The position numbers were made by a program, and so were the translations under genes. From an uncultured Chitinophagaceae bacterium (GTDB taxonomy: Bacteria > Bacteroidota > Bacteroidia > Chitinophagales > Chitinophagaceae), in assembly GCA_964605065.1 (NCBI GenBank), contig CAZSAQ010000003.1, positions 234,210-298,209 of the forward strand: DNA of 64,000 bases. Reading direction: 5' to 3'. The notes beneath the pieces were generated by a model. That model was not told the DNA's origin. It searched no databases and saw nothing but the letters and a program-made list of their open reading frames with translations. Below, one piece after another: positions 3,801 through 63,375 of this stretch. Numbering within the stretch: the first letter of the stretch is position 1; each line of letters opens with the position of its first letter.

Positions 3801-5060
3801 GGAAGATTCCCCGGCGGGCAGCGTAAACAAAAATCCAAATTGTTTCCAGGTAAAAACCGATGTTTCAGAAATGGGCCCGGTATTATAAGCGGCAATAAGG
3901 GTACCATCCGTTTTTTCAATCCGGAAAGTGATATTCGGATCCACCCCGTCCAGAAATGCCGGGTTCAGGCAGTTGGCAATCCATGCTGCAAATTCGTAGG
4001 TCGTCGATCCGCAGAGATTGTTGACTGTTTGCCGGTAAAATTCAAGTCCCGCTGTTTCCTGGGAATTATAGAAGGCCAGGTATCCGTTAACGTCGTTCGG
4101 AGTATGATCGGGCATGCCGGAGAACCAGGGGCCATTGAAAGGGGTATTGTTGGTGATGGTGTATTGACCGTCTTGTGGGGTGGGAGTGGCAGGATTGCCG
4201 TTTACCGAAACATAGGAAAGGGTGGTTGAGGCGCCCGGCTGAACTACAGGAAGCGGGTTGCCCGGGTTGGCACCTGCTCCGAAAGTGATGTTGACTACCG
4301 GATCGCCGAGTGAACCGGTGCACAGGACATTGGTTGCCTCGCAAAGAGCCTGAACTTCCTGCAAATTAAGGGCGCGATTATAGATTCTGACATCATCAAT
4401 TTTACCTTTGAATTTCAGATTATCACCTGTCCACCAGGATCCGATCAACAACTGCGTGTTGTTGCATTGAAGGAGGTTCGTATATGGCAAGATCTTCGTA
4501 TCAGAAAGTACTCCGTCCACATAAATTTTCAATACTGAATTTTCAAAGGTGCCTACCAGGCAATGCCATTGATTAGTGGAAAAATTTGAAATTGATTTAA
4601 CGAACGGGTTGCTGGGATCGTAAGGATATTGTTGATTACAACTGGCAATGTTGGGAATAGTACCAAAGAAAAAGCCGGCCTGCACATCATAGTTGATACC
4701 CAAGTGGTATGTCGCCGCGAAACCGTCGGTGTAACTGATTTTGCCAACAACAGTTTGCGAAATGGAAGATTCCGTATAAATCATCGCGGAGACGGTCACA
4801 GCAGTGGGTGACAGGCCCCCGTTATCATTTACTTCAATATAGTCGTCAATTCCATCAAAATAATAAGCACTGTTGGGGCTGCCGAACCGGTCGGTTGTGA
4901 GCGTCGGTCCATTTCTTGTAACTCCATGAAAACCGTTACCGGAAGCGTCATTGGCGTTTCCCGAAAAGGGATAAAAGGCCAGAAGGCCATTGTTCAGATT
5001 AACCTGGGAAATACCGTTCAAAGTGAGTATAAGAAATCCAGCTATTAATACAGGTCTCAT
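852..5060 (-). CDS. Giant secreted cell-surface adhesin: signal peptide, LamG/concanavalin-like lectin domain, glycine-rich block, Ig/PKD-like repeats and a T9SS type-B (gliding-motility/CHU_C) C-terminal sorting domain
   Basis: The N-terminus MRPVLIAGFLILTLNGISQ is a signal peptide. FYPFSGNANDASGNGFHG...LKFKGKIDDVRIYNRAL is LamG-like. A Gly-rich stretch reads GGGGLDHNSGGGGGANGGTGGFGG....GSGGGGGGG. The C-terminus NAFTPNGDGRNDCFGIQKWGGV...YVIRASSFCGEIKRTGNLLLIR is a T9SS CTD. Confidence 0.85.
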   Translation of the reverse strand: MRPVLIAGFLILTLNGISQVNLNNGLLAFYPFSGNANDASGNGFHGVTRNGPTLTTDRFGSPNSAYYFDGIDDYIEVNDNGGLSPTAVTVSAMIYTESSISQTVVGKISYTDGFAATYHLGINYDVQAGFFFGTIPNIASCNQQYPYDPSNPFVKSISNFSTNQWHCLVGTFENSVLKIYVDGVLSDTKILPYTNLLQCNNTQLLIGSWWTGDNLKFKGKIDDVRIYNRALNLQEVQALCEATNVLCTGSLGDPVVNITFGAGANPGNPLPVVQPGASTTLSYVSVNGNPATPTPQDGQYTITNNTPFNGPWFSGMPDHTPNDVNGYLAFYNSQETAGLEFYRQTVNNLCGSTTYEFAAWIANCLNPAFLDGVDPNITFRIEKTDGTLIAAYNTGPISETSVFTWKQFGFLFTLPAGESSVVLKMINNSVGGTAQPGNDLAIDDITFRPCGPNANASFSGSLQLDSLRVCAGDPVTLFGSLSAGYATPAYRWQVSNDQGQNWSDIPASAVFQYNFVAPSVGAVTHILYRMIAGEGSNVDETLCRVRSNIIVLSVVPDAICHPRGTPITGVINSYTEVISLDKCTNALNVSDASSFKTGDTVLLIQMKGAIVDSTNSAAFGNVLNYRNAGNYEYNLVDQVSGNSIILRNVILKQYDFPGAAVQLVRIPYYQTATIIDKLTSLPWNGKIGGILAFDVRDTLIMAADMDVTGKGFAGGKAINSLVLQSNCSQNEYIYPAGSTLAAPKGESITSLSVPYRNGKGSPASAGGGGLDHNSGGGGGANGGTGGFGGYQLEDCTGTSFDNRGWGGKSLPYSNAANRIYLGGGGGAGHCNQPAGINMDGGNGGGIIILRTGFLEGFGNSITARGANAVQCMLPNADNCHDGSGGGGGGGTILLQANTILSATTTNTAGGKGGDLIIYNTVGGGRIGPGGGGGGGIAWFSNAGLPASISNIQNGGLNGVITKDNNNPWGATSGQSGVSLYSLQIPVASTQFVKNIGTIQINPQLVACRNLQFASNVQVQRDAINNYRWYFGDGNTSSSASTAISHLYSRAGQYQVKLVVTDIAGCTDSTLLDVRVDTATAQAGPDQLVCLNQPVTLQGSGGGSYSWSPGNFLSDAGIAQPVATVPATTRFYLTVSDQSLCSATDSVLVSIIPKPVFNAPLAGVQVCLGKTVQLQGNNGGTVDYSWTPSVFLDNPAGQNPVFTPGTTSSLTVRVTERTCQYDSVFNVVVTVNDTPAVAATRSNDIDCSSPSAVLNATGAQTYTWSPASTLSNPNSANPVASPSTTQTYRVTGKDNKGCESSAEVVVKVTNGGNIVFTLPNAFTPNGDGRNDCFGIQKWGGVTIKEFSIFNRWGQRVFSTKDPTRCWDGRVNGKMQDPGGYVYVIRASSFCGEIKRTGNLLLIR

Positions 5061-5107
5061 TATTTAATATTCAGGGTTTTGGAGTAGGCCAAACGTGCCG
5101 AAAATGG

Positions 5108-5115
5108 TACTTTTG
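5108..5115 (+). promoter_or_regulatory. Bacteroidota sigma-A -7 element (TAnnTTTG) for the glycosyltransferase operon
   Basis: 'TACTTTTG' lies 22 nt upstream of the ATG at 5137, with an A-rich short leader. Confidence 0.5.
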
Positions 5116-5136
5116 CCAAATTAAAAAAAGCTCCTG

Positions 5137-5967
5137 ATGCTACCAAGAATTTCGATTGTTATTCCCTGTTACAACCAGGGAAGCTGGTTGCTGGAGACCC
5201 TCGAAAGTCTGAATCTTTGCGACAGACAGCTTTTTGAGGTTATAGTCGTGAATGATGGATCTTCAGATCAAACCACGGTTAAGATTTTAACTGAGCTGAA
5301 AAATCAGGGGCTGAATGTTATTTTCCAGGAAAATGCCGGGCTTTCCGCAGCCAGGAACGCCGGAATAAATATTTCCAAGGGAGATTTTATTCTGCCGCTG
5401 GACTCCGATAACAAAATCAGGCCCGCCTATTTAACCCGGGCACTAGAAATTTTCGATAAGTGCCCTGAAGTTGATGTGGTATATGGAAACGCATTGTATT
5501 TTGGTGCCAGGGAAGGAGAATGGAAACCAGGCTCTTTCAATTTGCAAAAAATAATGATATCAAATTATATCGATGCCTGTGCGTTAGTCAGAAAAGAAAA
5601 ACTAAAGACGATTGGCTTGTATGATATCGCAATGAGAGATGGTTGGGAGGATTGGGATCTTTGGCTGCGTATAGCATTTTCAGATGGAAGATTTTTTTAT
5701 ATCGATGAAATATTATGGGACTATCGGGTTACTCAGAATTCCATGTCCAAAACTCTATATCGCTCCTATGAGAAGCCAAATAAAATAGAGAATTATGTTA
5801 ATGCCAAATATCCTGACAAGATGGGTCAGCAATATCTTGTTCAGAATATGATCAAAAGGTTCAAATCCTCGCCACTTCTATATATCGGAAAACTGGTCAT
5901 TCGGGCTTACTTTCCGAAGTACTATGATAAGTTACTTCAGAAAAATAAAATCAGAAACGGAATATGA
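5137..5967 (+). CDS. Glycosyltransferase family 2
   Basis: SIVIPCYNQGSWLLETLESL...VIVVNDGSSD is a GT2 motif with a DXD-like DSD. It is the first gene of a tightly packed operon. Confidence 0.85.
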   Translation: MLPRISIVIPCYNQGSWLLETLESLNLCDRQLFEVIVVNDGSSDQTTVKILTELKNQGLNVIFQENAGLSAARNAGINISKGDFILPLDSDNKIRPAYLTRALEIFDKCPEVDVVYGNALYFGAREGEWKPGSFNLQKIMISNYIDACALVRKEKLKTIGLYDIAMRDGWEDWDLWLRIAFSDGRFFYIDEILWDYRVTQNSMSKTLYRSYEKPNKIENYVNAKYPDKMGQQYLVQNMIKRFKSSPLLYIGKLVIRAYFPKYYDKLLQKNKIRNGI

Positions 5968-6722
5968 TAGAGTCACAACACTATACCGAGAATTTTTATG
6001 CTGGACAACAGGATGGGTCGCTTTCTTCGGCAAAAGAAATTCTCCCATTGATAAAAGAAGTCTTGAATCCACAATCGGTCGTAGATGTGGGATGCGGGGT
6101 TGGATATTGGTTGAGTGTGTGGCATAATTGGGGGATCACCGATATTTTAGGCGTTGAAGGGCCTTACGTTAAGCCTGAGTTTCTAAAGGTTCCTGTTGGT
6201 AAGGTAATTTTGCAGGATCTGAAAGACCCGCTTCCCATAAACAGAAAGTTTGACCTGGCTATGTCTTTGGAAGTTGCCGAACATCTCCCCACATCTTTTT
6301 CTGACTCATTCGTTGAAACACTTTGTTCGCTAAGCGATGTTGTGTTGTTTTCAGCTGCGATACCCGGACAGGAAGGCACCTATCATATTAACGAGCAAGT
6401 GCCTGAATTCTGGGCCGAAAAATTCATGAAAAGGGGGTTTGTTCCTGTAGATTGCGTACGCGATAAAGTTTGGAACTCACCTAACGTTGAATGGTGGTAT
6501 CAGCAAAACGTTCTATTATTTGTGAGGAAGTCTGTATTGGATCGTTATCCATTGTGGAAGACGGCAAGTGAGAAAACTAACCCCACCTCATTGTTCAGGG
6601 TACATCCCTGGATTTACTTCTATCATTACCGGCAGAAAAAGCAAATGACCTCTATGGTCGGTTACCTGCGATGGAAGCTTTATCCGCTGAAAAAATGGGT
6701 TAAATCATTTTCAAAAAAATAG
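5964..6722 (+). CDS. Class I SAM-dependent methyltransferase
   Basis: VVDVGCGVGYW is the SAM-binding motif I. It overlaps the upstream stop by 4 nt (ATGA). Confidence 0.75.
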   Translation: MIESQHYTENFYAGQQDGSLSSAKEILPLIKEVLNPQSVVDVGCGVGYWLSVWHNWGITDILGVEGPYVKPEFLKVPVGKVILQDLKDPLPINRKFDLAMSLEVAEHLPTSFSDSFVETLCSLSDVVLFSAAIPGQEGTYHINEQVPEFWAEKFMKRGFVPVDCVRDKVWNSPNVEWWYQQNVLLFVRKSVLDRYPLWKTASEKTNPTSLFRVHPWIYFYHYRQKKQMTSMVGYLRWKLYPLKKWVKSFSKK

Positions 6723-6726
6723 CGGT

Positions 6727-7437
6727 ATGCGAGAAAAAGGACTAGTGAGGTTAAGTTCCTTATCTCTGGATAAGAACAGTTCCGATTATATTGTTATGCG
6801 ATATCTGATCGAGGATTTAACCGCTCATATCCGAAGTCATGCATCGGGGAAATTGTTGGATGTTGGCTGTGGTAATAAGCCGTATGAATCGTTGTTTGAG
6901 GGGAAAATACTAAGCTATACAGGATGCGATGTCGTACAGAGCAGCCTTTCAAGAGTGGATGTTATTTGTGAGGCTACCAATCTGGCATTTAAAAACGGAC
7001 AATTTGATACGGTATTCAGCACTCAGGTGATTGAACATGTGAGTGATCCATTTAAGATGCTTGATGAAATATACAGAGTGTTGAAACCGGGCGGTACATT
7101 AATTATTTCGGCTCCGTTTTGCTGGGAGCTTCATGAAGAACCTTATGATTTCTATAGATATTCTAAATACGGCTTGCGGGCGATGATCGAAGGACGGGGA
7201 TTTGAGATTGACACAATTAAAGCAAATGGAGGAAAATGGGCAGCAATCGGACAACTTAATGTCAATATCATTTATTCATCTTTCGCCAGGAAGAGTTTTT
7301 TTGTGAAACTGCTAAAAGGCGTTTTTATCAAACTGAGATTTACCTCCTTATGGAATCGGTTCTTTTTATGGCTGGATCGAAAATATCCCAGTGATCTACT
7401 TACCTTGAATTATGTGGTTGTGGCAAAACGAAAATAA
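6727..7437 (+). CDS. Class I SAM-dependent methyltransferase (Methyltransf_11-like)
   Basis: LLDVGCGNKPY ... LKPGGTLIISAP. Confidence 0.8.
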   Translation: MREKGLVRLSSLSLDKNSSDYIVMRYLIEDLTAHIRSHASGKLLDVGCGNKPYESLFEGKILSYTGCDVVQSSLSRVDVICEATNLAFKNGQFDTVFSTQVIEHVSDPFKMLDEIYRVLKPGGTLIISAPFCWELHEEPYDFYRYSKYGLRAMIEGRGFEIDTIKANGGKWAAIGQLNVNIIYSSFARKSFFVKLLKGVFIKLRFTSLWNRFFLWLDRKYPSDLLTLNYVVVAKRK

Positions 7438-7458
7438 TAAAACCAACTATCGTTGAGG

Positions 7459-8418
7459 ATGCCTTTCTTCTCCATCTGTATTCCTGCTTACAAGCGAGGC
7501 GAGCTGCTGGCAAGGCTGCTCGATTCAATTCGTTCACAACAGTTCCGCGACTTTGAAGTAATAGTAACGGATGATAGCCCGGATGACTCGGTTCAGAAAG
7601 TCTGTGAAAAATTTTCCGGCGATTTCACCCTTCGTTATTTCAAGAACAACCCCGCCCTGGGAACACCGGAGAATTGGAATGAAGCGATCCGGCATGCCGG
7701 GGGACAATGGATAAAAATTATGCACGACGACGACTGGCTGGCGGCGCCAGACAGTCTCGAAGAATACAAAAACCTTATCGAACAAAACCCACAGGCATCG
7801 TTCCTGTTCTCTGCCTCTACTATTGTGAAGGAAGATGGCACAACCGAACACTTCGAAACCAGTGAGGGGAATCGCCGGCTGTTGATAAAAGATCCTGCAA
7901 ACCTGTTTTATAAAAACTTTATAGGGCCGCCCAGTGTTGTTTTGTATCAGGCAGATCCTGAGATCATTTACGATCGCAACATGAAGTGGCTCGTGGATGT
8001 TGACTTCTATTACCGCTACCTGAGCCGCTATCCGAATTTTGCCATGACCCGCAAAGCGCTGGTGAAAGTAGGTTTCAACCCGGGGCAGGTTACCAACGCG
8101 GTCATCCATGATCCGTACATAGTGATTCCGGAGACTTTGTTGTGGCTTCAAAAAACCGGCATCCATATCTTTCGCCGGGTGCGCAACTACGATGCGGCCT
8201 GGAGGCTGATGAGAAATTACCGGATCCGGTCTTTGGAACAACTGGAAGAGTTAAAACCACCCGGCTTCACCGGGAAGATTCCGGCAGTGTTTCCCCAGAT
8301 TCTTTCGAAACAAAGGCATATCCCGATCGAGGTGCTCAGGATGGGGGTATTGTCAAAATTCTTTATGTTTATTAGTTATCTTGGCTACTGTGTACAGGCT
8401 AAAACAAACCAACCCTAA
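7459..8418 (+). CDS. Glycosyltransferase family 2
   Basis: MPFFSICIPAYKRGELLARLLDSIRSQQFRDFEVIVTDDSPDD. The track ORF starts at TTG 7453 and the ATG at 7459 is preferred. Confidence 0.8.
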   Translation: MPFFSICIPAYKRGELLARLLDSIRSQQFRDFEVIVTDDSPDDSVQKVCEKFSGDFTLRYFKNNPALGTPENWNEAIRHAGGQWIKIMHDDDWLAAPDSLEEYKNLIEQNPQASFLFSASTIVKEDGTTEHFETSEGNRRLLIKDPANLFYKNFIGPPSVVLYQADPEIIYDRNMKWLVDVDFYYRYLSRYPNFAMTRKALVKVGFNPGQVTNAVIHDPYIVIPETLLWLQKTGIHIFRRVRNYDAAWRLMRNYRIRSLEQLEELKPPGFTGKIPAVFPQILSKQRHIPIEVLRMGVLSKFFMFISYLGYCVQAKTNQP

Positions 8419-8448
8419 CTTCGTACGGCCAGGCCACACCTTTCATCA

Positions 8449-9453
8449 ATGGATTTAAGTATCATCATTGTAAATTATAGAACACCCAAACTGGTTCTCG
8501 ATTGCATCCGGTCGATACGGTCGTTCCCAGCCCGTATCCGTTACGAGATCATTGTGGTGGACAATGCTTCGGGCGACCAGGGCCAGCAGGAAATTCAATC
8601 TTTCTATCCGGAGGTTCGCTGGATACAGATGGAATATAATGCCGGTTTTGCACGCGCCAATAATGAAGGCATCAGGCGCAGCGAAGCCAGGGCGGTACTT
8701 CTTCTGAATTCAGATACACTCATAGAAGACGATGCCATTCAGCTTTGTTTTGAACGACTGATGGGATCAGACTACGTAGCTGGCGGAGTTCAATTGCTGA
8801 ATGAAGACAGCAGCCCGCAGATCTCGGGGAATTTTTTTATGAAAGGAAGCCTGAACAACCTGCTTCCCCTGCCTTATGTAGGCTGGCTGGTCAAACAAAT
8901 GGGTTTACTCTTCTCTGTAAAAAAGCCCAATGTGCCGGATGCAACTGGCCTAACGGAAGTAGATTGGATCAATGGCGCATTTCTGATGATCAAAAGGTCG
9001 GCTTTTGAAAAAGTGGGTCTGATGGACGAGGACTTTTTTCTGTACGCAGAGGAAGCAGAATGGTGTGCCCGGCTGGGTAAATCAGGTCGCCTGGTAATTT
9101 ATGGTGATCTGCATGTATTGCATTTACAGGGCGAAAGTTCAAACAAGGCTTTTGGTTCCTCAGGTCGCGGATACTACAATCTGTCTGACAGGAAAGGCAA
9201 ACAGATCATGCTTTCCAATTTTGTGCGAATAAGAAAACAATTTGGCGGAGCCTGGTTTCTCTTTCACCTGTTAGCGTATACGATAACCATACCTGTATTT
9301 GCGATACTGGGTTTTTTTCACTACCTCTTCCAGCCTGATCAGTTCCCGGCGTTTATTCGGTCATTGGCCGGATTCACCGCAAATGTTTTCGGTTGCTGGC
9401 GGTTTTTACTCCCTATTCTTGGCAACAAGCCTTATTTTTATAAGGTTCTATGA
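8449..9453 (+). CDS. Glycosyltransferase family 2 with C-terminal transmembrane helices (GtrB/CsbB-like polyprenyl-phosphate sugar synthase architecture)
   Basis: LSIIIVNYRTPKLVLDCIRSI...IIVVDNASGD. The C-terminal hydrophobic segments are AWFLFHLLAYTITIPVFAILGFF and FGCWRFLLPILG. Confidence 0.8.
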   Translation: MDLSIIIVNYRTPKLVLDCIRSIRSFPARIRYEIIVVDNASGDQGQQEIQSFYPEVRWIQMEYNAGFARANNEGIRRSEARAVLLLNSDTLIEDDAIQLCFERLMGSDYVAGGVQLLNEDSSPQISGNFFMKGSLNNLLPLPYVGWLVKQMGLLFSVKKPNVPDATGLTEVDWINGAFLMIKRSAFEKVGLMDEDFFLYAEEAEWCARLGKSGRLVIYGDLHVLHLQGESSNKAFGSSGRGYYNLSDRKGKQIMLSNFVRIRKQFGGAWFLFHLLAYTITIPVFAILGFFHYLFQPDQFPAFIRSLAGFTANVFGCWRFLLPILGNKPYFYKVL

Positions 9454-12350
9454 TGGGCAAGTCAGTTTTTTATTTGCTGTTTTTTTTCACCCGGGCCATC
9501 TTGCTGAATGCCCAGGATTACAGTTTTACGCACTACGACAAACAGGAGGGAATGGCCGGGTCCATTGCATATGGCATGACCCAGGATAAAGACGGCTTTA
9601 TCTGGATAGGAACGGAAACGGGATTGAGCCGCTTCGATGGAAGCAGGTTTGTCAATTTCTCTACACTGGACGGACTGCCCGATAATGAAATCCTCAATGT
9701 TTTCGGAGATTCAAAAGGAAGGGTATGGATCATGCCATTCCGCGTTTCCATCTGCTATTATTATAAGGGGAAATTTTACACCAATGAAAACGACTCTCTC
9801 TTAAGCAAGATAAAGCTGGTTACCCATGCGGCATACGTATCGGAAGACGCCGAGGGGAACATCCTGATCCAGGAATTTGGAAAGAATTGCTACCTGATAA
9901 CGGCGGATGGACAGGTTGATCATTTTACTCCTGATTCGGCGAAGCAGAATTTTGTACAGTCTCACCGGCGAAAGGAAGGCGGATTTTGGGTTCAGCAGGG
10001 AAAATGCCTTTATGTGCTGGAGAAAAGAAAGATGACCCATATAGCGGATCTGAAATTTCCCGCCCAACATTATTTCAATGCCGCTTTGCTCGCCGACCAG
10101 ATGGCCTGGCGCATCAACGGACGCGAGGTGGCCGTTGCCTACCTGCAGAGAAACCAGGTTATCCAGAAATCGTTGTTTCCGGACAAGAAAGGTCGGGTGT
10201 CCATGATCGACAAGGGAACGTTGGCCTTCTGCACCCGGGAGGGGGCCTATGTTTATAGATTGGGACAGAACAGGTCGCCGCAGGTCTTTCTGGCCAACAA
10301 GAGCATCAATGCCATTTTTATTGACGATGAAAAGAACTGGTGGTTTTGCACCTATGGAGCCGGCATCTATCGTCTGAATTCGGAAACTGTAAGGAACATC
10401 AGTTTCAGCAATGGGGCCGATCGCAATCATGCCATTACCGCAGTTGCCCGGAAAGGGGAAAAAATATTTGCCGGAAGCGATGATGGCCGGATATATACTT
10501 TCGATTTCCGAAACGATACGTTGTTCAAAAGTACGGTCATTCCGTATCCGGACAAGACCAGTTCCCCGATCATTGATCTCTCGGTCGGAGAAGACGGAAA
10601 TATCGTATATGGATCACTGGTATCCGTTGTGCAGCTCGATTCTTCCTATCGCGTAAAGGCTTCCAGATACAGTACGTCGACCAAAAAAATATCCGATGCC
10701 GCAAACGGCGAAGTGCTGGTGTCAACAGGGGTGAATGCGGTCAGGATGAATCTAAACCACAACAGGGTAGTGGATACGATCTGGAATGGCAGAACAACCA
10801 CTGTTTTTCAAAAGGGCGATACGATATACCTGGGAACACTCGCAGGGTTATTTTGTATCTACGCGGATAAAAGGACCGAATTCCTGGGCGATCATATCCC
10901 TTTGTTGCGGACCAGGATCATCTCCATATCCCAAACAGCCAATGGTAATTTGTGGGTGGCTACCTATGGAAATGGGGTGATCGGTTTGCGCAATAACCAG
11001 CTTGTTGAACATTTCTCTGGCGAAGACGGACTCAAAAGCAATATCTGCCGTACAACCGCCACCCATGGTAATGACTTGTGGATCGGAACCGATAAAGGGC
11101 TGAGTAAAATCAATACGGCAGACAGGAAGATACCTATCACCAACTATTCTTCGGCAGACGGACTCAGCCATGAAACCGTCAATGCCATAGCGACTACTGA
11201 TTCCATGATATTCGTGGGCACTTACGGAGGGCTTACCTACTTCAAGGAAAAATTGCTGACACAGGAATCTTCCTGCCGCCTCCGGATCACCGGCATTTTT
11301 GTGAACTACAACATGATTTCCCCTGATACAGCAGGACTGACGCTCGATCATGATCAGAACAGCATCCGGGTCGACTACGTGGGCATTTCATTCCGATCGC
11401 AGGGAGATGTGGAGTATAAGTACCGGCTTCTGGGGCTTGATACCACCTGGCAGCACACCAGGGAAATGAGTTTAAATTACCATTCGCTTCCTTCAGGCAG
11501 GTATTTACTTCAAATGCAGGCTATCAACCGCTACGGAGTATCGAGCAGCCTGGTGAATATTCCATTTGCCATCATTGGAACGGTGTGGGAGAAAACGTGG
11601 GTGCGGGCGCTCCTGTCATTGCTGTTTCTCTTATTCATCGTCCTGGTAACCATGATGGTCAGCCGGCAGATCAAAAAAAGGGAGGACAGAAAGAACCGGA
11701 TCAACATGCGCATTACCGAACTGGAACAACTGGCGCTCAAAAGCCAGATGAACCCGCACTTCATATTCAACAGCCTGAACTCCATTCAGCAATACGTAAT
11801 GGACAAGGACATTGCGGGCGCCAATAAGTTCATTTCCGATTTCTCCCGCCTCATCCGGCAGACACTTGATTTTTCTTCCAGGCCTTTTGTCCCTCTTGCC
11901 GACGAAATCAGTTATTTACGCACTTACCTGGAATTGGAAAAAACCAGACTGGAAGGCAAGTTCGATTACAAGATTGACCTCGCCCCTGAATTGAAAGAAG
12001 GCGCCTTTCCTATTCCCCCAATGATTATTCAACCCTACGTGGAGAACAGCATCCGGCACGGGGTAAAGTATCGAAAGGATGATCGGGGACTTATACAGGT
12101 AAAAGTAAACCGGAAAAACAGATACATTGTGGTGGTGATCGAAGACAATGGGATCGGAAGAAAGATGGCCGCCTACTATAAAACATCTAACCCGATCGAG
12201 TATCAGTCCAAGGGAATGTCGCTAACGGCCGATCGCATTGAACTGATCAACAGAAACCGGTCTTCCAAAATCACCGTGCTGATTGAAGACATGGTTGATT
12301 CCTCGCTGGAGCCCCTCGGAACAAGGGTTACGATCAATTTCCCGGAATAA
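9450..12350 (+). CDS. Sensor histidine kinase: periplasmic two-component-regulator propeller repeats plus Y_Y_Y domain, one TM helix, LytS-type His_kinase and HATPase
   Basis: The start overlaps the upstream GT2 stop (ATGATG). The propeller repeat motif is GFIWIGTETGLSRFDG. TM WVRALLSLLFLLFIVLVTMMV. The LytS His_kinase motif is LKSQMNPHFIFNSLNSIQ and HATPase is EDNGIG. Confidence 0.85.
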   Translation: MMGKSVFYLLFFFTRAILLNAQDYSFTHYDKQEGMAGSIAYGMTQDKDGFIWIGTETGLSRFDGSRFVNFSTLDGLPDNEILNVFGDSKGRVWIMPFRVSICYYYKGKFYTNENDSLLSKIKLVTHAAYVSEDAEGNILIQEFGKNCYLITADGQVDHFTPDSAKQNFVQSHRRKEGGFWVQQGKCLYVLEKRKMTHIADLKFPAQHYFNAALLADQMAWRINGREVAVAYLQRNQVIQKSLFPDKKGRVSMIDKGTLAFCTREGAYVYRLGQNRSPQVFLANKSINAIFIDDEKNWWFCTYGAGIYRLNSETVRNISFSNGADRNHAITAVARKGEKIFAGSDDGRIYTFDFRNDTLFKSTVIPYPDKTSSPIIDLSVGEDGNIVYGSLVSVVQLDSSYRVKASRYSTSTKKISDAANGEVLVSTGVNAVRMNLNHNRVVDTIWNGRTTTVFQKGDTIYLGTLAGLFCIYADKRTEFLGDHIPLLRTRIISISQTANGNLWVATYGNGVIGLRNNQLVEHFSGEDGLKSNICRTTATHGNDLWIGTDKGLSKINTADRKIPITNYSSADGLSHETVNAIATTDSMIFVGTYGGLTYFKEKLLTQESSCRLRITGIFVNYNMISPDTAGLTLDHDQNSIRVDYVGISFRSQGDVEYKYRLLGLDTTWQHTREMSLNYHSLPSGRYLLQMQAINRYGVSSSLVNIPFAIIGTVWEKTWVRALLSLLFLLFIVLVTMMVSRQIKKREDRKNRINMRITELEQLALKSQMNPHFIFNSLNSIQQYVMDKDIAGANKFISDFSRLIRQTLDFSSRPFVPLADEISYLRTYLELEKTRLEGKFDYKIDLAPELKEGAFPIPPMIIQPYVENSIRHGVKYRKDDRGLIQVKVNRKNRYIVVVIEDNGIGRKMAAYYKTSNPIEYQSKGMSLTADRIELINRNRSSKITVLIEDMVDSSLEPLGTRVTINFPE

Positions 12351-12458
12351 CATCACCGAACTACTGTTAAATAAGAGTAACCTCCATGGAAATTTATTGA
12401 CACAACCTCTTAATTTTGTCTATCGTTATTTTGTATACCTACAATTCGAAGAGCGATT

Positions 12459-13220
12459 ATGTCGAAGCCAGTCATGAAAGCGGTGATAGTGGATGATGAA
12501 CCAAAGAACATAAAAATCCTCCGGGGGCTGCTGGATGAATTCTGTCCCAACGTAGCGGTGCTGGGCGAAGCAACCAATTCTGAAGATGCAAAACAGGTGT
12601 TCCAGGACGTAAGGCCTGATATTGTTTTCCTCGATATCGAAATTCCATACGGTAATGCCTTTGATCTTCTTGATCAATTGAAACCTGTTGATTTCGAAGT
12701 GATCTTTATTACAGCTTTTGACGAATATTCATTGAAGGCATTTAAATACAGTGCTCTCGATTATCTGTTAAAACCCGTAAATATTGAAGAGCTGATGCAA
12801 GCGGTGGCCAAAGTGGAAAAAAGGCTGGAACATAAACTGATCAATCTGCAACTGAACAACCTTTTTCATAATTTTTCGAGGCAGCCCGGCGATTCCCAGC
12901 GGATTGCGCTTACCGCCATGGATGGAGGAATCGTATTCATGGAGATCAGGGATATCCTGCGTGTAGAAGCTAAAGGAGGGTACACTTTTGTGTTCGATAA
13001 AACCGGGAAATACTACATTTCGTCCAGGGCTATTAAGGAATATGAAGAGATGTTGCCGCCTGATATTTTTTTCAGAATACATAACTCCTACATCATCAAT
13101 GTTTTCAGGATAAAAAAATACCACAAGGGCAGGGGAGGAGTGGTAGAAATGGACGATGGCGTGTCTATCGAAGTGGCCGCGCGCCGCAAAGACGAATTCC
13201 TGAAGCGCCTGGCTTTGTAA
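12459..13220 (+). CDS. LytTR-family response regulator (REC + LytTR DNA-binding)
   Basis: AVIVDDEPKNI...DIVFLDIEIP is the REC acidic pocket. A C-terminal LytTR fold (FFRIHNSYIIN) follows. Confidence 0.9.
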   Translation: MSKPVMKAVIVDDEPKNIKILRGLLDEFCPNVAVLGEATNSEDAKQVFQDVRPDIVFLDIEIPYGNAFDLLDQLKPVDFEVIFITAFDEYSLKAFKYSALDYLLKPVNIEELMQAVAKVEKRLEHKLINLQLNNLFHNFSRQPGDSQRIALTAMDGGIVFMEIRDILRVEAKGGYTFVFDKTGKYYISSRAIKEYEEMLPPDIFFRIHNSYIINVFRIKKYHKGRGGVVEMDDGVSIEVAARRKDEFLKRLAL

Positions 13221-13386
13221 ACTTTATTTACACGTCTATCGGAAATTTCGACACGTTGGTGGAATTTATTACAACACAACAGCGGGTTTACCATAATTTA
13301 GTTGAAACGCATTTATCTCTCTAAAGCTGCCTCAAGGCTTACTGAGATACAAAGAAGGTTCTTTTACCATTACTCCTTTTTTGCTT

Positions 13387-13415
13387 AGCCCCGGTTCTGC
13401 TGGGGCTTTTTTGTT
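13387..13415 (+). terminator. Rho-independent terminator after the response-regulator operon
   Basis: Stem agcccc / ggggct around loop ggttctgct, followed by TTTTTTGTTT. Confidence 0.6.
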
Positions 13416-13428
13416 TACAGGAAAACAC

Positions 13429-14556
13429 TTACTGCGAGAGAAACTGAGCGGCTTTTTTTGCCAGGTTACCCCAGTAATAAAATTCGTAAAAGGCGGCAGG
13501 TGTTTGAATAGTTGACTGAAGGCAATTCTTTACTTCTTCGTTAAAGGCATTCCAGTCCTGGTCGGGTAATACCTTGAGTTTGTCTCCGCAGGCGGCGCGG
13601 TCAAGACCCATCGCCCCAAATTCGGTGGAAACAACCGTACTCCCGTAGGCAACCGCCTCGATGGCCTTGGTCTTCACCCCGCCACCGCTAAGAATTGGAT
13701 TGAGAAAGATATCCGAGGCTTTAAAATATTCAAAGATGTCGTCAACAAATCCTGCATACACTATGTTCAGGTGCCGGTATTCTTTCAGCTCGTTGAAAAA
13801 ATCAGGCAATCCTTTGCCGCAAACGACGATGGTATAGGGTATGCCGCACTGTAACAAGTAGGGATTGATATGATCAAGAATCGCCTGCAAGGCATCGTAG
13901 TTGCTGTGGTGATACAGGGCGCCGTTAAAAAGTAATACTTTATGATGCGCCGGAATGCCATGCCGCTTTCCGATCACCTCGCGACAGAAAGATCTGTCTT
14001 CCGGCAATTGTGCTACTTCTACGCCGTAGGTGATGGCGATAGATTTCGAAGGTTCGACATGCAGCACGCGGATGGCTTTCTGTCGGTCTTCTTCCGAAAT
14101 GAAAAAGATCTTATCGCAGGAATGGTAGGCCCATTGTTCATACCATTTAAGCGCCTTCCACCACCATCTTCCAATGGAACGGGATCTTTCGAATTCGAGA
14201 TTATGAGAATGGATCACCCAGGTGACCGGAGTGGTGGCTTTTAACAGCCAGGCCAGCCAGGCATAATAGGGATGCTCGATCAATAAATGAGTAGAATGGT
14301 ATTGTTTCAAAAGTTTTCGAACCCTGAAATAAAGAACAGGATTGGCATAGCGAAGCCGGCTGTTGGATAGTATTTTCAGAAAAGTATATCCTTTCGCATA
14401 CGCTACACTGTTCGCTTCCACACCTGCTGCTACCAGGGTAAGCTCCCGGGCGATGTATTCATTGAAAATGGCAATGCCTTTTTCACCGCCGAGCCTGGCG
14501 GGTAATATCCTGTAAGGAACGATACTTAATATACGGGTGTTGGTCGACTCGTTCAT
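13429..14556 (-). CDS. Glycosyltransferase family 4 (GT-B, GT1/GT4)
   Basis: The C-terminus GGVKTKAIEAVAYGSTVVSTEFGAMGLD is typical of GT4 retaining transferases. Confidence 0.85.
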   Translation of the reverse strand: MNESTNTRILSIVPYRILPARLGGEKGIAIFNEYIARELTLVAAGVEANSVAYAKGYTFLKILSNSRLRYANPVLYFRVRKLLKQYHSTHLLIEHPYYAWLAWLLKATTPVTWVIHSHNLEFERSRSIGRWWWKALKWYEQWAYHSCDKIFFISEEDRQKAIRVLHVEPSKSIAITYGVEVAQLPEDRSFCREVIGKRHGIPAHHKVLLFNGALYHHSNYDALQAILDHINPYLLQCGIPYTIVVCGKGLPDFFNELKEYRHLNIVYAGFVDDIFEYFKASDIFLNPILSGGGVKTKAIEAVAYGSTVVSTEFGAMGLDRAACGDKLKVLPDQDWNAFNEEVKNCLQSTIQTPAAFYEFYYWGNLAKKAAQFLSQ

Positions 14557-14558
14557 AT

Positions 14559-15617
14559 TTACGGTAGCGAAGATAACCGGCTTTGGGATTTAATGGCCGG
14601 CCTGGCAATAACATATATAAAAGGGGCGAGCCCAAATGACAAAAAAGGAAGCGACCTGATCAGCGGATTGCAGATGGAACCGATCAGGTTTTTCCAGGAT
14701 TTCCTGTTGTGCGTATCCCAGAATCCCGGTTCAAAGGAAGCCGTGTAGCCGGCCCCGGTTATCCAGGATGTGTAGTAACTAAATGGCAGGAGATGTTCTA
14801 CCCAGACTCCGTTTTCGGGATCGCAGGTATTTGTGCCTGCGGACAATGGTTCCGGCAGCTTCCGGGTGGCCAGGTATAGGTCAACTGCTTTCAGAATATC
14901 CCATTTCGCCAACCCTCTGGTTTGAAAGCCCAGTGTGGCTGCTTCGCTGGCTGTAAAACCGGGATGATATTGATGAATGATTTCCTCTCTCTGTTTGCGG
15001 TACACCTTTTCCCATTTAAGATGCATGCGTCGATGTGTCAAACGGGTTCCGGGATTCTTCTGGTTGGCCGTGGTAGAAGAAAATACGATGGCGCCCGGTT
15101 GACGGACAGCCAGCAGCTTGTAAAATAGATCCAGGCGATAGATATGCTCTATTACATTCCGGGATGCAATGATATCACATTGCAGTCCCTGGCGGTCCAA
15201 TACGTCCAGGGTTTCTTCGATATCACCAACTATATACAAGTCGGAAGGACAGTTCAGCGCGGTAGCCAGTAATTCGGCGCTTATTTTCCAATCTTCAAGG
15301 TGATCGTTGTAGATGACTTTTCCGCAGCCGATCATCTTGGCCAGCGGGTACAAAGTTCCCACCCCTGCCCCGTAATCCATCAATACCAGCGAGGAAGGTT
15401 CTTTACCTGTTAATTTGATAGCCCTGTATAAGAGCGCGGCGCTGGTTTGGATCGAGAAAAAAATCCGGTTGAAATGACTGCTTTTAAAATAATGCAGACA
15501 GTGCTCGGGCATACCCAGCCTGTCCGCATCCAGTGCCTGCAAACGACTATAGAGTTCTTGTGACCGATCGTCGATCAGTCGCGAAAGCTCATCCCGAACG
15601 ACCAGGAAACTATCCAT
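14559..15617 (-). CDS. Class I SAM-dependent methyltransferase
   Basis: LVLMDYGAGVGTLYPLAKMIGCG...VIYNDH. The start MDSFLVV at 15617 is preferred over the track start, which runs into the upstream gene. A 2-nt gap separates it from the GT4 start. Confidence 0.7.
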   Translation of the reverse strand: MDSFLVVRDELSRLIDDRSQELYSRLQALDADRLGMPEHCLHYFKSSHFNRIFFSIQTSAALLYRAIKLTGKEPSSLVLMDYGAGVGTLYPLAKMIGCGKVIYNDHLEDWKISAELLATALNCPSDLYIVGDIEETLDVLDRQGLQCDIIASRNVIEHIYRLDLFYKLLAVRQPGAIVFSSTTANQKNPGTRLTHRRMHLKWEKVYRKQREEIIHQYHPGFTASEAATLGFQTRGLAKWDILKAVDLYLATRKLPEPLSAGTNTCDPENGVWVEHLLPFSYYTSWITGAGYTASFEPGFWDTHNRKSWKNLIGSICNPLIRSLPFLSFGLAPFIYVIARPAIKSQSRLSSLP

Positions 15618-18150
15618 TGACACCCGCTTTTTGAGGCGATCTGGATTGTTTCCATATCCAGAACAAACCGCCCAGTAACAGCAGCCAGGATAAGATCCCA
15701 ATCGCGAGGCTGATGGTGTCGCCCGTATGGATCGAGGCTGGCTCGAACCGGAATTCGATCTTGTGACTTCCTGCCGGTATTGCGAGGGCGCGGAGAAGGT
15801 AGTTTACCCGGGCAATCGGAACTTCCTTGCCATCAATGCTGGCTTTCCATCCATGCGGGTAATAGATCTCGCTGAACACTCCCAATCCGTCGGTGGCCGA
15901 CTGGCTGTTGTATAATATATAATCGTTCCTGTTTTCAACCAGTTTGATACTGGAAGCGGAATCGTAGTGGAAATTCTGATTGATTTTTGATACCTCTCTT
16001 TTATCAATCACAGCGGTATCTCTTGGTTTGATGGAATCGAGGGCCAGCATCTCTTCATTGGCAGAGGCCACCGGCCGGATGGCTTTTACAAACCAGGCCG
16101 GTCCCAGTGCTTCCGGGTTAGGCATAGCCATTGGCTGTCTTGTCTGCGGGTTGGATATGATGACATACTTGGTATTAAGCATGTTCAGCACCTGTATGTT
16201 TCCTTTGCTGATCTGGTTTTCAATCAAATCCTGGTAGAGGGCAAGTTTGGCAGGATGGTATCCGCCAATGGAATTGTGAAAATAGGCTGACCTCGATTCA
16301 TTCGTAAAGTTTTCCGTCTGGTCAAACACCCTGTAGTAACCCGTGTCTTTTTTAATGGCCAGGTCGGCATAGTTGGGGGTGAATGCCGCCGCCATCAATT
16401 CGTCTTCTTCGATAAATTTTGAATGGTTGAAGTATCGCAGATCAACGCCGATCAGGTCAATGAAGGAAAGGATGGTAATTGCTGCTGCCAGGTAAAGCGG
16501 GTTCAGTTTTTTCCGGGCTGCCAGGAATAATGCGATCGCGCCAAGCAGGAAAAAGATAATGCCTCTCACCATATCCCCGGTAAAAAGGCCTTTACGATCG
16601 GCCACCAGCGCATTCATTATCTGGCCGGCTTCCCCATTGGCTTTCTGTGTAATCTGTTCACTTGGTTGCTGTCCCTGCGCATAGGCATTACCGAGCATCT
16701 GACCAATGGATTCACGGATATTTCTATCCTGCGGCCCTTTGAAATCAAAACTGATATAGGCTACTACGGTCAGGGCAACCAGGATACCAGCCACATAAAA
16801 CGCTGGTTTTATTTTTTTCCAGAGTTCGTCGCCCGACAGTTTACCAAATAATAATTCCTGCAGACCCATGGCTGCCAGTACAGGCAGGCAAAGCTGTGGC
16901 AACACCAGGCTCATGGAAGGAGCCCTGAACTTTCCGTACATGGGCAGGTAATCAAACAGGAAATAGTTGAAGGCACTGAAATGTCTTCCCCAGGCCATCA
17001 GTATCCCCATCAGACCTGCTGCAATGATCCAGCTGAGATTCCAGCTTCTGACCAGGAATAACCCCACAACCGCAAATAATACAATGATCACTCCGAAATA
17101 GACCGGGCCTGATGTATTGGGTTGATCTCCCCAGTAAGGCGAGAGAAATTGCATGAAATAGCGAATGCCGTCTTCCGGTATCCGGGCATCCTGCATCGTT
17201 TCAATTACTTTTGGCGATTCGCCCAGCTCGTTGGGATTGGAACTTCCTCCTTTGGCATAAGGAAGAATAAAGGTGAGACTCTCCTCTACACCGTAGCTCC
17301 ACCGGAACGCGTATTCCTTGTCCAACCCGCCTTTTGTTTTGTCTTCCTTGGGTTTGTTGAGAGTAAGTTCGGAACGCCCTCCGCGCATGGTTTCCTTCGC
17401 ATATTCATTCAGAGGCATTAACATCACTGCATAGGATCCCGCAGCGATCAGGCCTGCTACGATCGAAACGGCCGCAGTCATCATAATATCCTTAACAGAT
17501 TTCTCCTTCAGTTTTTTGATGGCGAAGCCCAGCGCGGTAAAGAACAACAGGATGATAGTATAGTAAGTGATCTGGATATGATTCTGGTACAGCTGAAGCG
17601 TTGTAAAAAGCATCAGCGCCAGGAACCCCAATACATATTTTCTTTGCGTCAATAGGAGGAAGCCCGCCAGGATCGCCGGCATATAGCCCATGGCCGCCAG
17701 TTTGGTGGTATGACCCACTTCTGCCAGGATCGGGCTGTAAGAGCAAAATGCAAATCCGAGAGAACCAAATATGGCAATCCAGGTGCGAAGGCTGAGCACG
17801 AGTGAAAGTATATAAAAACCGATGCAGCTTAAAAAGAAAAGACCTGCCGGTGTGGGCAGAAATCCGGTAAACAGGTAATGCAGCCAGGCGATGGTAATGT
17901 TGTATTTCGATTCGATGGCCACCTGGTAAGCGGGCATTCCGCCGAACAGGCTGTTGGTCCATAAAGGAAAATGACCGTATTTTTCTTTGAATTCAAATGA
18001 TGATTGAGCCATGCCCTTCCAGCCGATCACGTCCGACTGATTCACGATTTTTCCCTGCAGAGCGGGCAAGCAATAAAATATGGAGATCAACAGGAAGATT
18101 CCGATGGCCAGTACATGTGGTTGCAGTTTCTGCCAGAGCGACTTGTTCAT
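15610..18150 (-). CDS. YfhO-family polytopic membrane protein (GT-C fold glycosyltransferase-like)
   Basis: N-terminus MNKSLWQKLQPHVLAIGIFLLISIFYCLPALQGKIVNQSDVIGWKGMAQSSFEFKEKYGHFPLWTNSLFGGMPAYQ has the Bacteroidota YfhO signature. There are many TM helices and a large C-terminal periplasmic domain. It overlaps the downstream methyltransferase gene by 8 nt. Confidence 0.8.
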   Translation of the reverse strand: MNKSLWQKLQPHVLAIGIFLLISIFYCLPALQGKIVNQSDVIGWKGMAQSSFEFKEKYGHFPLWTNSLFGGMPAYQVAIESKYNITIAWLHYLFTGFLPTPAGLFFLSCIGFYILSLVLSLRTWIAIFGSLGFAFCSYSPILAEVGHTTKLAAMGYMPAILAGFLLLTQRKYVLGFLALMLFTTLQLYQNHIQITYYTIILLFFTALGFAIKKLKEKSVKDIMMTAAVSIVAGLIAAGSYAVMLMPLNEYAKETMRGGRSELTLNKPKEDKTKGGLDKEYAFRWSYGVEESLTFILPYAKGGSSNPNELGESPKVIETMQDARIPEDGIRYFMQFLSPYWGDQPNTSGPVYFGVIIVLFAVVGLFLVRSWNLSWIIAAGLMGILMAWGRHFSAFNYFLFDYLPMYGKFRAPSMSLVLPQLCLPVLAAMGLQELLFGKLSGDELWKKIKPAFYVAGILVALTVVAYISFDFKGPQDRNIRESIGQMLGNAYAQGQQPSEQITQKANGEAGQIMNALVADRKGLFTGDMVRGIIFFLLGAIALFLAARKKLNPLYLAAAITILSFIDLIGVDLRYFNHSKFIEEDELMAAAFTPNYADLAIKKDTGYYRVFDQTENFTNESRSAYFHNSIGGYHPAKLALYQDLIENQISKGNIQVLNMLNTKYVIISNPQTRQPMAMPNPEALGPAWFVKAIRPVASANEEMLALDSIKPRDTAVIDKREVSKINQNFHYDSASSIKLVENRNDYILYNSQSATDGLGVFSEIYYPHGWKASIDGKEVPIARVNYLLRALAIPAGSHKIEFRFEPASIHTGDTISLAIGILSWLLLLGGLFWIWKQSRSPQKAGVNG

Positions 18151-18208: not shown

Positions 18209-18490
18209 ATGAAGAACTTATTATTTTTAATGCGGGTGGCCTTTATTTGCAATCTGTGCCTGCTGCTGGCCTGGTTGAGTAAAGACCTGTCCTTCCTGCC
18301 GGAGGGATATATTCAATCAACGGTTGTGATATTGGGCGTCGGACTTTCCTTTTTCCTGAACTTTATACTCTGCCTGCTGTTACTGGTTTGGTGGGGAATG
18401 CGCCGAAAGTTACCAGCTGATTTTCCGGGCTGGTTAATTATCGCTAATTTCCTTTTTTTAATTCCTCAAGTATACCTGCTGCTCAAATGA
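18209..18490 (+). CDS. Small 3-TM membrane protein (hypothetical), translationally coupled to yhhQ
   Basis: 93 aa, very hydrophobic (LCLLLAWL, VVILGVGLSFFLNFILCLLLLVWW). Its stop overlaps the next start (ATGA at 18487-18490). Confidence 0.45.
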   Translation: MKNLLFLMRVAFICNLCLLLAWLSKDLSFLPEGYIQSTVVILGVGLSFFLNFILCLLLLVWWGMRRKLPADFPGWLIIANFLFLIPQVYLLLK

Positions 18491-63365: not shown

Positions 63366-63375
63366 TGCTGATGTA

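Follow-up and report, generated by a model that had tools for sequence, protein, structure and literature searches.

Positions 5137-18150 of a 64-kb stretch of a Chitinophagaceae genome (soil-type Bacteroidota; the whole stretch is called the window here) are a surface-glycan assembly island, anchored by a gene for a YfhO-family glycosyltransferase. In related genomes YfhO is the conserved anchor of a lineage-variable island of glycosyltransferases (GTs), sugar methyltransferases (MTs) and deoxyhexose synthesis genes. In addition, the translational coupling of a membrane-anchored family-2 GT (GT2c) to a sensor histidine kinase (HK) together with its LytTR-family response regulator (RR) is real and conserved across genera. 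On the basis of sequence comparison and structural models, we put forward, as an evenly balanced proposition, that the cytoplasmic GTs and MTs would build a methylated, lipid-linked oligosaccharide and that YfhO would pass this glycan to a periplasmic acceptor, plausibly Ser/Thr residues of proteins. The distinguishing features of this GT-C-centred pathway are its occurrence in Bacteroidota, its GlfT2-like GT2 partner, its richness in methyltransferases and the conserved glycan-type sensor kinase embedded in it.

Genes were called by open reading frame (ORF) listing, translation, and Pfam and NCBIfam scans. The ten genes that an earlier note on this DNA had described were all present, with the positions and domains that it had assigned to them; the list adds one gene at the edge of the island:

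5137-5967, plus strand: GT2a, soluble family-2 glycosyltransferase (Pfam Glycos_transf_2, 5.8e-29; no transmembrane (TM) segment; GC 0.396)
5964-6722, plus strand: MT1, S-adenosylmethionine (SAM) methyltransferase with a weak family match (Methyltransf_23, 4.4e-07, 30.2 bits vs a cut-off of 27)
6727-7437, plus strand: MT2, class I SAM methyltransferase (Methyltransf_11, 1.4e-18; GC 0.395)
7459-8418, plus strand: GT2b, family-2 glycosyltransferase with an ATG start (Glycos_transf_2, 6.2e-22)
8449-9453, plus strand: GT2c, C-terminally membrane-anchored GT2 (Glycos_transf_2, 8.3e-18)
9450-12350, plus strand: HK, sensor histidine kinase of 966 aa (Pfam Reg_prop, Y_Y_Y, His_kinase PF06580)
12459-13220, plus strand: RR, LytTR-family response regulator (Response_reg, 2.9e-18; LytTR, 7.2e-16)
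13429-14556, minus strand: GT4, family-4 (GT-B) glycosyltransferase (Glyco_trans_1_4, 7.5e-17; Glyco_transf_4, 1.9e-11)
14559-15617, minus strand: MT3, putative SAM methyltransferase of 352 aa (weak matches: Methyltransf_23, E = 0.0099; UbiG, 0.0014)
15610-18150, minus strand: YfhO-family GT-C glycosyltransferase of 846 aa (Pfam YfhO, 33.5 bits vs 28.5)
18209-18490, plus strand (in addition to the ten): conserved 93-aa protein with three TM segments, divergent from YfhO, at the conserved edge of the island

The plus-strand operon is thus ordered GT2a, MT1, MT2, GT2b, GT2c, HK and RR, and it converges on a minus-strand operon of YfhO, MT3 and GT4. GT2a and MT1 overlap by 4 nt, the stop of GT2c and the start of HK share the ATGA within ATGATG, and 108 nt lie between HK and RR. 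On the minus strand, where overlaps of 2-8 nt had been claimed, YfhO and MT3 do overlap by 8 nt, but the MT3-GT4 junction is a 2-nt gap. The count of three methyltransferases stands for MT1 and MT2, while MT3 owes its name to a weak match (Pfam E = 0.0099) and a visible SAM motif I (VLMDYGAGVG); MT3 falls in no curated family, and sequence searches with MT3 and GT4 returned no relative in the PDB. No gene for Wzx, Wzy, Wza, an initiating transferase, GtrA or sugar-nucleotide synthesis was detected in 5137-18150 or elsewhere in the window, nor were export or chain-length proteins; the island is therefore not a classical Wzx/Wzy O-antigen, capsule or exopolysaccharide (EPS) locus, as had been argued from the same absences. 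The remainder of the window carries housekeeping genes (glycogen genes, transporters and others), and the closest named relatives of the source genome are Chitinophagaceae such as Flavitalea, Paraflavitalea and Niastella.

YfhO and its variable neighbourhood

YfhO consists of a multi-pass TM domain, a C-terminal beta domain on the periplasmic side and one last TM helix. The match to the Pfam YfhO model (PF09586; 33.5 bits for a gathering score of 28.5) is confined to the last 90 residues (757-848 of the extended ORF), and the homologues of YfhO in public databases are all annotated as PF09586. A sequence search of the PDB gave no relative. The AF2 model (pLDDT 78) displays the features of a GT-C enzyme, namely a multi-pass TM core, a large extracytoplasmic domain and the GT-C structural core, and its structural matches scored as follows:

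Cell-wall arabinofuranosyltransferases (top matches): AftD 15.4; AftA 14.3
Other matches: STT3B 13.9; Pmt4 12.3; AglB 11.7; DPY19 11.5; PglB 11.5; Pmt1/Pmt2 about 10; ArnT 9.5

Protein mannosyltransferases and oligosaccharyltransferases (OSTs) thus fit the fold about as closely as the cell-wall enzymes. Some 8 residues after TM1, the first periplasmic loop carries D40, a single Asp and not a DxD, which does not vary among 18 orthologues or among homologues with identities down to 27%; the conserved motif runs on to P-x-W…F-x-G-M-P. The acidic loop, whose absence would have spoken against the reading of YfhO as a GT-C enzyme, is therefore intact, and by sequence and model YfhO is a credible member of that class.

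A scan of one genome per species yielded 80 YfhO loci (43-66% identity), nearly all of them in Chitinophagaceae. A YfhO ORF was called in 77 of these, and island content was counted in the 50 loci whose flank was 6 kb or longer. The position of YfhO is syntenic in the 80 genomes. A gene of Vut_1, a family of YhhQ-like queuosine-precursor transporters, lies within 1.5 kb upstream of YfhO in 24 of the 50 loci with enough flank (36/77 overall), often together with the 93-aa membrane protein. In the window, the gene for this protein overlaps the start of the Vut_1 gene (18487-19263) by 4 nt; the protein itself matches no Pfam or NCBIfam family. Many Chitinophagaceae loci, L004-L006, L013, L014, L036 and L086-L088 among them, have this pair of genes divergent from YfhO.

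Downstream of YfhO gene content is variable, with GT genes in 46/50 loci, methyltransferases in 34/50 and sugar-nucleotide genes in 26/50. Among the GT families, GT4 was counted in 22 islands, GT2c-like enzymes in 19 and GT2b homologues in 15; the GT4 family is the commonest gene immediately downstream of YfhO, GT2b lies upstream of GT2c in L036 and L104, and MT3 is kept directly after YfhO in the nearest clade (49-60% identity). The methyltransferases are of the FkbM, CmcI-type rhamnosyl O-methyltransferase, C-methyltransferase and class I types, GDP-mannose 4,6-dehydratase is present in 15 of the 50 islands, and one related island carries rml-type genes. Both associations that had been proposed from the window alone recur in relatives: that of methyltransferases with YfhO, by the count just given, and that of the anchored GT2, since GT2c adjoins YfhO in many genomes, often in the same operon.

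Five of the 77 YfhO islands also contain a gene of a 500-aa family with roughly 10 TM helices (e.g. L013 20492-21988, L054 6313-7821, L058 19580-21070), which in L054 is divergent from YfhO at a distance of 126 bp. With lenient settings, one member of the family, the only one to do so, matched Polysacc_synt above the gathering score (30.7 bits vs 28.2), and another stayed just short of it for MatE (23.9 vs 24.9), while NCBIfam, and Pfam at 1e-3, gave no match. The family is probably a divergent Wzx-like (MOP) flippase, although this assignment is a weak one. Wzy, chain-length regulators, Wza and ABC exporters were absent from the recurrent gene families examined in related islands.

The variable part of the island also differs in composition. 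GT2a, MT1 and MT2 have GC contents of 0.40-0.43 and GC3 values of 0.38-0.45 (the mean of the window is 0.478, with a standard deviation of 0.025 over 1-kb segments), and the GC minimum of all 64 kb falls at 5001-6000. An AT-rich part had been placed at 5.1-8.4 kb; such a stretch does exist, but sliding GC values locate it at about 4.5-7.4 kb, which corresponds to GT2a, MT1 and MT2, while GT2b and GT2c are of normal composition. A block orthologous to GT2a-MT1-MT2-GT2b was found in only one of the 80 related loci (L072). Because of this rarity and of their low GC content, GT2a, MT1 and MT2 look like a horizontally exchanged cassette, and to that extent the idea of horizontal acquisition is supported.

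The membrane-anchored glycosyltransferase GT2c

The pairing of GT2c with YfhO had led the earlier note to regard GT2c as a GtrB/CsbB-type synthase of undecaprenyl phosphate (Und-P)-linked sugars. The C-terminal membrane anchor on which this view relied is there. In the AF2 model (pLDDT 82.6) the GT-A domain is followed by helices 248-265, 267-293 and 296-317, of which 267-293 is strongly hydrophobic (Kyte-Doolittle 1.95) and 296-317 is less hydrophobic and poorly conserved. This layout resembles that of the GtrB/CsbB/ArnC/DPM1 family, though it is not specific for that family. The GT2c family (approximately 334 aa) is tightly conserved, with more than 120 clusters at 58% identity or above, and is recognized by the motifs VVDNASGD, LLLNSDT, DEDFFLYAEEAEWC and C-terminal NKPYFYKVL. 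The last of these (residues 326-334) is almost invariant across the family, while the helix before it is poorly conserved, a pattern that suggests a docking or active-site-capping tail.

Both sequence and fold lead away from GtrB and its relatives. The best NCBIfam match of GT2c is rhamnosyltransferase TIGR01556, none of the models for ArnC, PgfS, PpgS or dolichyl-phosphate hexose transferase matched, and a single-sequence search of the PDB returned no GtrB, DPMS or ArnC. A family profile gave 18.9 bits for GtrB (residues 3-91 only) and 25.4 bits for DPMS, compared to 67 bits for chondroitin synthase, a generic GT2; in its ranking GtrB and DPMS come behind about 20 generic GT2 enzymes and are matched in the N-terminal, nucleotide-binding half only. 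Foldseek likewise retrieved generic GT-A enzymes. By fold GlfT2 is the closest enzyme, with DPMS ranked 20th, ArnC 37th and GtrB 39th. GlfT2 acts at the cytoplasmic face, where it polymerises on a decaprenyl-PP-linked glycan. Judged by sequence and predicted fold, GT2c is a GlfT2-like, membrane-anchored enzyme that fails GtrB/CsbB membership on both counts, and it most resembles enzymes that extend lipid-PP-linked glycans.

The assignment of GT2c as a GtrB/CsbB-type Und-P-sugar synthase is thus not upheld. Indeed, the outcome that the earlier note had named as fatal to its proposal, an anchored GT2 that is a cytosolic polymerising synthase, is nearly reached, in that GT2c appears by fold to be a cytoplasmic-face polymeriser of the GlfT2 kind. 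GT2a and GT2b were also considered for the role of Und-P-sugar synthase and rejected: GT2a matches GtrB/ArnC at about 36 bits over its N-terminal 105-119 residues only, has no TM helix and scores better against generic GT2s, and GT2b matches neither GtrB nor ArnC. The related claim that a single sugar decorates a pre-formed polymer or protein is not supported either, because four cytoplasmic GTs and three MTs point to the assembly of an oligosaccharide.

The sensor kinase and regulator coupled to GT2c

HK is composed of an N-terminal signal or anchor, a periplasmic part of approximately 700 residues with a double propeller (Reg_prop) and Y_Y_Y, one TM helix (approximately 720-738) and a LytS-type core. 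The core contains His_kinase (PF06580, 3.8e-22) and HATPase_c domains, the H770 of its NPHF motif is invariant, and it is homologous to 6SWJ. As in the hybrid two-component systems (HTCS) of Bacteroides (BT4663 type), the sensor is a periplasmic Reg_prop/Y_Y_Y module, homologous to PDB 4A2L/4A2M (E = 1.9e-31) and 3V9F; unlike in HTCS, nothing follows the ATPase domain in HK, and a gene of its own encodes the receiver, which has a LytTR output in place of a fused AraC domain. The PF06580 core with its His and the receiver-LytTR partner are those of LytS/LytTR systems (BtsS/BtsR, LytSR), from which HK differs in that its sensor is periplasmic and not a 5TM-Lyt membrane domain. In both of these known groups the accompanying genes serve polysaccharide utilisation or transport, whereas HK and RR are predicted to be co-transcribed with biosynthetic GTs. 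A literature search on propeller-LytS/LytTR systems in Bacteroidota returned nothing relevant.

When viewed from YfhO, the kinase appeared to be a sporadic passenger, HK and RR being present in only 3 of the 80 species-representative loci. This impression was overturned by a search from the kinase side, which showed a recurrent coupling to GTs. Relatives of HK with at least 35% identity and available upstream sequence provided 20 informative loci (including those from a metagenome scan), 14 of which have a same-strand GT gene directly upstream of HK (the window, L005, L036, L086-L092, L096, L098, L104 and L105); the orthologues that follow a GT gene are 38-48% identical to HK. As for the others, HK is divergent from the YfhO gene in L101 and lies among unrelated genes in L093, L095, L099, L100 and L102. 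The 4-nt GT/HK overlap is identical in seven loci (the window, L086 and L087 from Niastella, L088, L089 from Flavitalea, L096 and L098), with HK identities of only 38-45%, and RR follows HK orthologues in nearly all loci. Of about 50 HK paralogues at 24-30% identity, only three touch GT or YfhO genes like those of the window, L140 being one of the three.

Four orthologue loci (39-45% identity) were inspected by exact look-up. In the two Niastella loci, L086 and L087, GT2, GT2c, three tandem HKs and RR converge on GT2 and YfhO beside Vut_1, and GT2c overlaps the first HK by 4 nt. In L088, rml genes, a C-methyltransferase, a CmcI methyltransferase and GT2s precede HK. The last of these GT2s is GT2c-like and shares 4 nt with HK, RR comes next, and the operon as a whole converges on GT4, an MT, an MT3-like gene and YfhO. 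In L089 (Flavitalea BT771), the order is TylF-type MT, MT, GT4, 2-epimerase, GT2, GT2c, HK and RR, with overlaps of 4 nt each at the GT2-GT2c, GT2c-HK and HK-RR junctions.

Some loci depart from this arrangement. HK has expanded in tandem in Niastella and in one metagenomic contig, where three paralogues (41-43% identity to HK of the window) stand before one RR (L086 2184-10883, L087 2154-10907), and L104 (3656-14069) carries an HK-RR-HK-RR-HK array. In L005 (= L085, 14535-19786), a relative at 66% identity, a Peptidase_S58 gene lies between HK and RR, HK follows GT2b after a 138-nt gap, and GT2c and MT3 are absent from the locus; the GT2c-HK-RR block is evidently undergoing remodelling there. 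On a metagenomic Bacteroidota contig of GC 0.30 (L140, 4055-14086), Epimerase_2 and two GT4 genes are divergent from an HK-RR pair that converges on YfhO (35% identity), and the association of kinase and YfhO may thus reach beyond Chitinophagaceae.

Promoters were sought with the exact Bacteroidota-type -7 motif TAnnTTTG, which has 32 matches on the two strands of the whole window; a sigma-70 scan had been uninformative (26 sites for 23 expected) and was replaced by this motif. Exact plus-strand matches are limited to 5108-5115, 6205 (inside MT1) and 12411-12418, and there is none on that strand between 6212 and 12411, and so none upstream of HK. The signals of the two operons are:

5108-5115, plus strand: candidate -7 box TACTTTTG of a putative promoter, 21 nt before the GT2a start in a 76-nt intergenic region
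12411-12418, plus strand: candidate internal -7 box TAATTTTG of a putative promoter, 40 nt before the ATG of RR
13387-13407, between the convergent operons: GC-rich hairpin (9-bp stem with 6 GC pairs) followed by TTTTTTG, a likely terminator

The earlier proposal that the kinase is hard-wired into the GT transcript is therefore supported for HK, by the ATGA overlap kept across genera and by the lack of a -7 box, and needs amendment for RR, which probably has an additional promoter of its own.

Proposed pathway and its alternatives

In the pathway that we propose, GT4, GT2a, GT2b and membrane-tethered GT2c would work at the cytoplasmic face, where they would transfer sugars from nucleotide donors to an acceptor linked to polyprenyl-(di)phosphate, and MT1, MT2 and MT3 would O-methylate the sugars. 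The glycan would be flipped by a transporter encoded elsewhere (Wzx-like genes are present in some related islands), and YfhO would take the lipid-linked glycan, or a lipid-linked sugar, as donor toward a periplasmic acceptor. The most plausible acceptor would be Ser/Thr of secreted proteins, as in the general O-glycosylation system of Bacteroidota, because the glycans of that system are commonly methylated while its transferase and core machinery are still unidentified. HK could sense a periplasmic carbohydrate through its domain homologous to Bacteroides glycan sensors and, via the LytTR regulator, tune expression of the locus or of its targets.

Bacteroidota glycosylate many secreted proteins at D-(S/T)-(A/I/L/V/M/T), with a commonly methylated O-glycan whose hexose-deoxyhexose core is conserved and whose outer part is species-specific (PMC12871550). 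The outer part is encoded by metG-wzx-GT loci, while the oligosaccharyltransferase, the ligase and the machinery for the core have yet to be discovered; this 2025 review also points to a resemblance between core synthesis and eukaryotic O-mannosylation (PMC12871550). The function of YfhO in Bacteroidota, which the earlier note had called unknown, is still so experimentally; however, a July 2026 preprint, in silico only, predicts that it is the O-oligosaccharyltransferase of the phylum, on the grounds that it is homologous to PMT, conserved throughout the phylum, predicted to be essential and equipped with multiple TM helices (10.64898/2026.07.27.740950). This prediction tempers the novelty of our own. 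In Bacteroides, yfhO is not clustered with GTs and adjoins sahH or luxS (10.64898/2026.07.27.740950).

A bolder version of the proposal, which sequence and models lead us to offer tentatively and with more doubt than belief, is that the island could be the Chitinophagaceae form of the missing transferase and core module of Bacteroidota general protein O-glycosylation, placed under kinase regulation. YfhO would then serve as O-oligosaccharyltransferase, or else as an O-hexosyltransferase of the PMT-like kind. The conserved inner glycan would be the work of GT4 and GlfT2-like GT2c, methylated sugars specific to the species would come from the low-GC GT/MT cassette, and HK with its LytTR partner would match protein glycosylation to a carbohydrate signal from the envelope or the environment. 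If true, no regulated general glycosylation system would have been described in bacteria before this one. The enzyme that attaches protein glycans in Bacteroidota and the genes for their conserved core have been missing for more than 15 years. The company of YfhO in Chitinophagaceae, with GTs, sugar methyltransferases, deoxyhexose genes and an occasional Wzx-like flippase, is an independent context that ties it to a lipid-linked glycan pathway; it is informative where the neighbours of Bacteroides yfhO are not, and it names GT4, GT2c and MT3 as partner genes. The conserved GT2c-kinase coupling suggests, moreover, that surface glycosylation is signal-regulated here, for which we found no description in the literature searched.

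Several observations weigh against the pathway and its extension. Enzymes that use lipid-P-sugars and those that use lipid-PP-oligosaccharides match the fold of YfhO about equally, such that the fold cannot separate the two donor types, and all characterised YfhO-family members are described as users of Und-P single sugars, not of oligosaccharides. P. gingivalis lacks YfhO (10.64898/2026.07.27.740950) and yet has a characterised O-glycoproteome; YfhO thus cannot be the universal transferase. The island has neither a flippase nor an initiating transferase, and the window lacks the metG-wzx-GT locus known for O-glycans in Bacteroidales. On the side of regulation, the GT2c-HK-RR block of Flavitalea BT771 has no YfhO within 9 kb, and no LytTR binding site was found, a search for direct repeats in three promoter regions having given only a T-rich repeat in the HK-RR gap.

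One alternative, close to the original proposal and unlikely in our view, is that GT2c makes an Und-P-monosaccharide that is flipped, and that YfhO attaches this one sugar, which may be methylated, to an already formed polymer or protein on the outer side of the membrane. The characterised YfhO-family systems (CsbB/YfhO, Lmo1079, PgfS/PgfM) do pair a GT2, of GtrB-like type, with the GT-C enzyme and, as they are described, employ Und-P-linked single sugars. The hydrophobic C-terminal helix of GT2c is genuine and a second helix comes after it, GT2c neighbours YfhO in many genomes, and the absence of Wzx and of an initiating transferase would suit such a mechanism. GT2c, however, shows no preferential similarity to GtrB, ArnC, DPMS or PgfS, whether in NCBIfam models or in its own profile (in which GtrB is matched over the N-terminal 90 residues and trails the generic GT2s), no GtrA-like flippase is present, and the GT2c-HK-RR block can occur without an adjacent YfhO; a one-sugar decoration would also leave three further GTs and three MTs without a role. 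It is equally improbable, to our mind, that the product is not a protein glycan at all but a decoration of lipopolysaccharide (LPS) or lipooligosaccharide (LOS), of outer-core or O-antigen-like type, an exopolysaccharide or a glycolipid, with YfhO acting as ArnT, AftA/AftD and teichoic-acid YfhO do. AftD and AftA, the top structural matches of YfhO, act on cell-wall glycans, characterised YfhO enzymes modify teichoic acids, variable cassettes of GTs, MTs and deoxyhexose genes are typical of O-antigen and EPS loci, and GT2a-MT1-MT2 have the look of horizontal acquisition. Yet Wzy, chain-length regulators, Wza and ABC exporters are lacking both here and among the recurrent families that were examined for related islands, the fold is matched about as well by protein mannosyltransferases and OSTs, and the fixed place of YfhO in the core genome, at 43-66% identity, fits a housekeeping function better than a strain-variable polysaccharide.

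With regard to regulation, the kinase and its regulator might be passengers from a very large paralogous family of Chitinophagaceae that landed between two glycan operons and control something unrelated. We consider this highly unlikely. The rarity of HK and RR among species-representative YfhO loci, five HK relatives (35-39% identity) that sit amid housekeeping genes, the peptidase gene and the 138-nt gap in L005, and the candidate -7 box of RR itself would all fit a passenger; the GT gene directly upstream in 14 of the 20 informative loci, the 4-nt overlap retained in seven of them despite low HK identity, the lack of a -7 box at HK and the near absence of such neighbours from the distant paralogues argue for a maintained association.

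The proposed pathway shares features with several known systems. As in CsbB-YfhO (GlcNAc on B. subtilis lipoteichoic acid, LTA) and PgfS-PgfM1/PgfM2 (protein O-glycosylation in Streptococcus mutans), a PF09586 GT-C enzyme is paired genomically with a GT2; in this enzyme TM helices are numerous, the last of them is preceded by a large extracytoplasmic domain, and the first outer loop holds an acidic residue. The island differs from these systems in that the partner is GlfT2-like and not GtrB/CsbB-like, the host is a Gram-negative Bacteroidota without teichoic acid, three more GTs, three methyltransferases and a two-component system accompany the pair, and only the last 90 residues of YfhO match the Pfam model. 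The three-component GtrA-GtrB-GtrC and the ArnC-ArnT systems are more distant: no GtrA-like ORF or domain was detected in 5137-18150 (the 93-aa neighbour matching no family), GT2c is far from GtrB and ArnC by sequence and fold, and the gene count here implies an oligosaccharide, not a single sugar. In comparison with the protein O-mannosylation of eukaryotes and actinobacteria (Dol-P- or polyprenyl-P-Man synthase with PMT), no DPM1/Ppm1-type synthase was identified (DPMS ranks 20th for GT2c), and YfhO has its C-terminal beta domain where PMT has MIR domains. To our knowledge, no glycan structure is known for Chitinophagaceae.

The O-glycosylation loci of Bacteroidota, namely LFG of B. fragilis and the 27-kb cluster of T. 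forsythia (GtfSMILE and MtfJOY; five Gtfs and three Mtfs, PMC6120980), resemble the island in their GT2/GT4 set and three methyltransferases and in having a conserved and a species-variable part. Their glycans are commonly O-methylated on a hexose-deoxyhexose core, and their transferase is unidentified, YfhO having been predicted for that role. LFG-type loci begin with metG and wzx, go on to variable GTs and close with two conserved GTs. In contrast to these loci, neither a metG-wzx signature nor nonulosonic-acid genes are present in the window, and no two-component system has been described there to compare with the embedded one here.

Two further observations concern genes outside the island. 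At 852-5060, on the minus strand, the island is flanked by a gene for a giant type IX secretion cargo protein with Laminin_G_3, PKD, a CHU_C C-terminal domain and a long stretch rich in Gly. In Paraflavitalea soli (L084 20797-22532) and Flavitalea BT771 (L089 17404-20931), too, LamG/PKD/CHU_C proteins of a similar kind border the island or the GT2c-HK-RR block; this could be a coincidence, such genes being plentiful in these genomes. Finally, the gene at 62619-63461 on the minus strand, unrelated to the glycan island, encodes a 280-aa protein with Porph_ging and PNGase_F-II_N-like domains.

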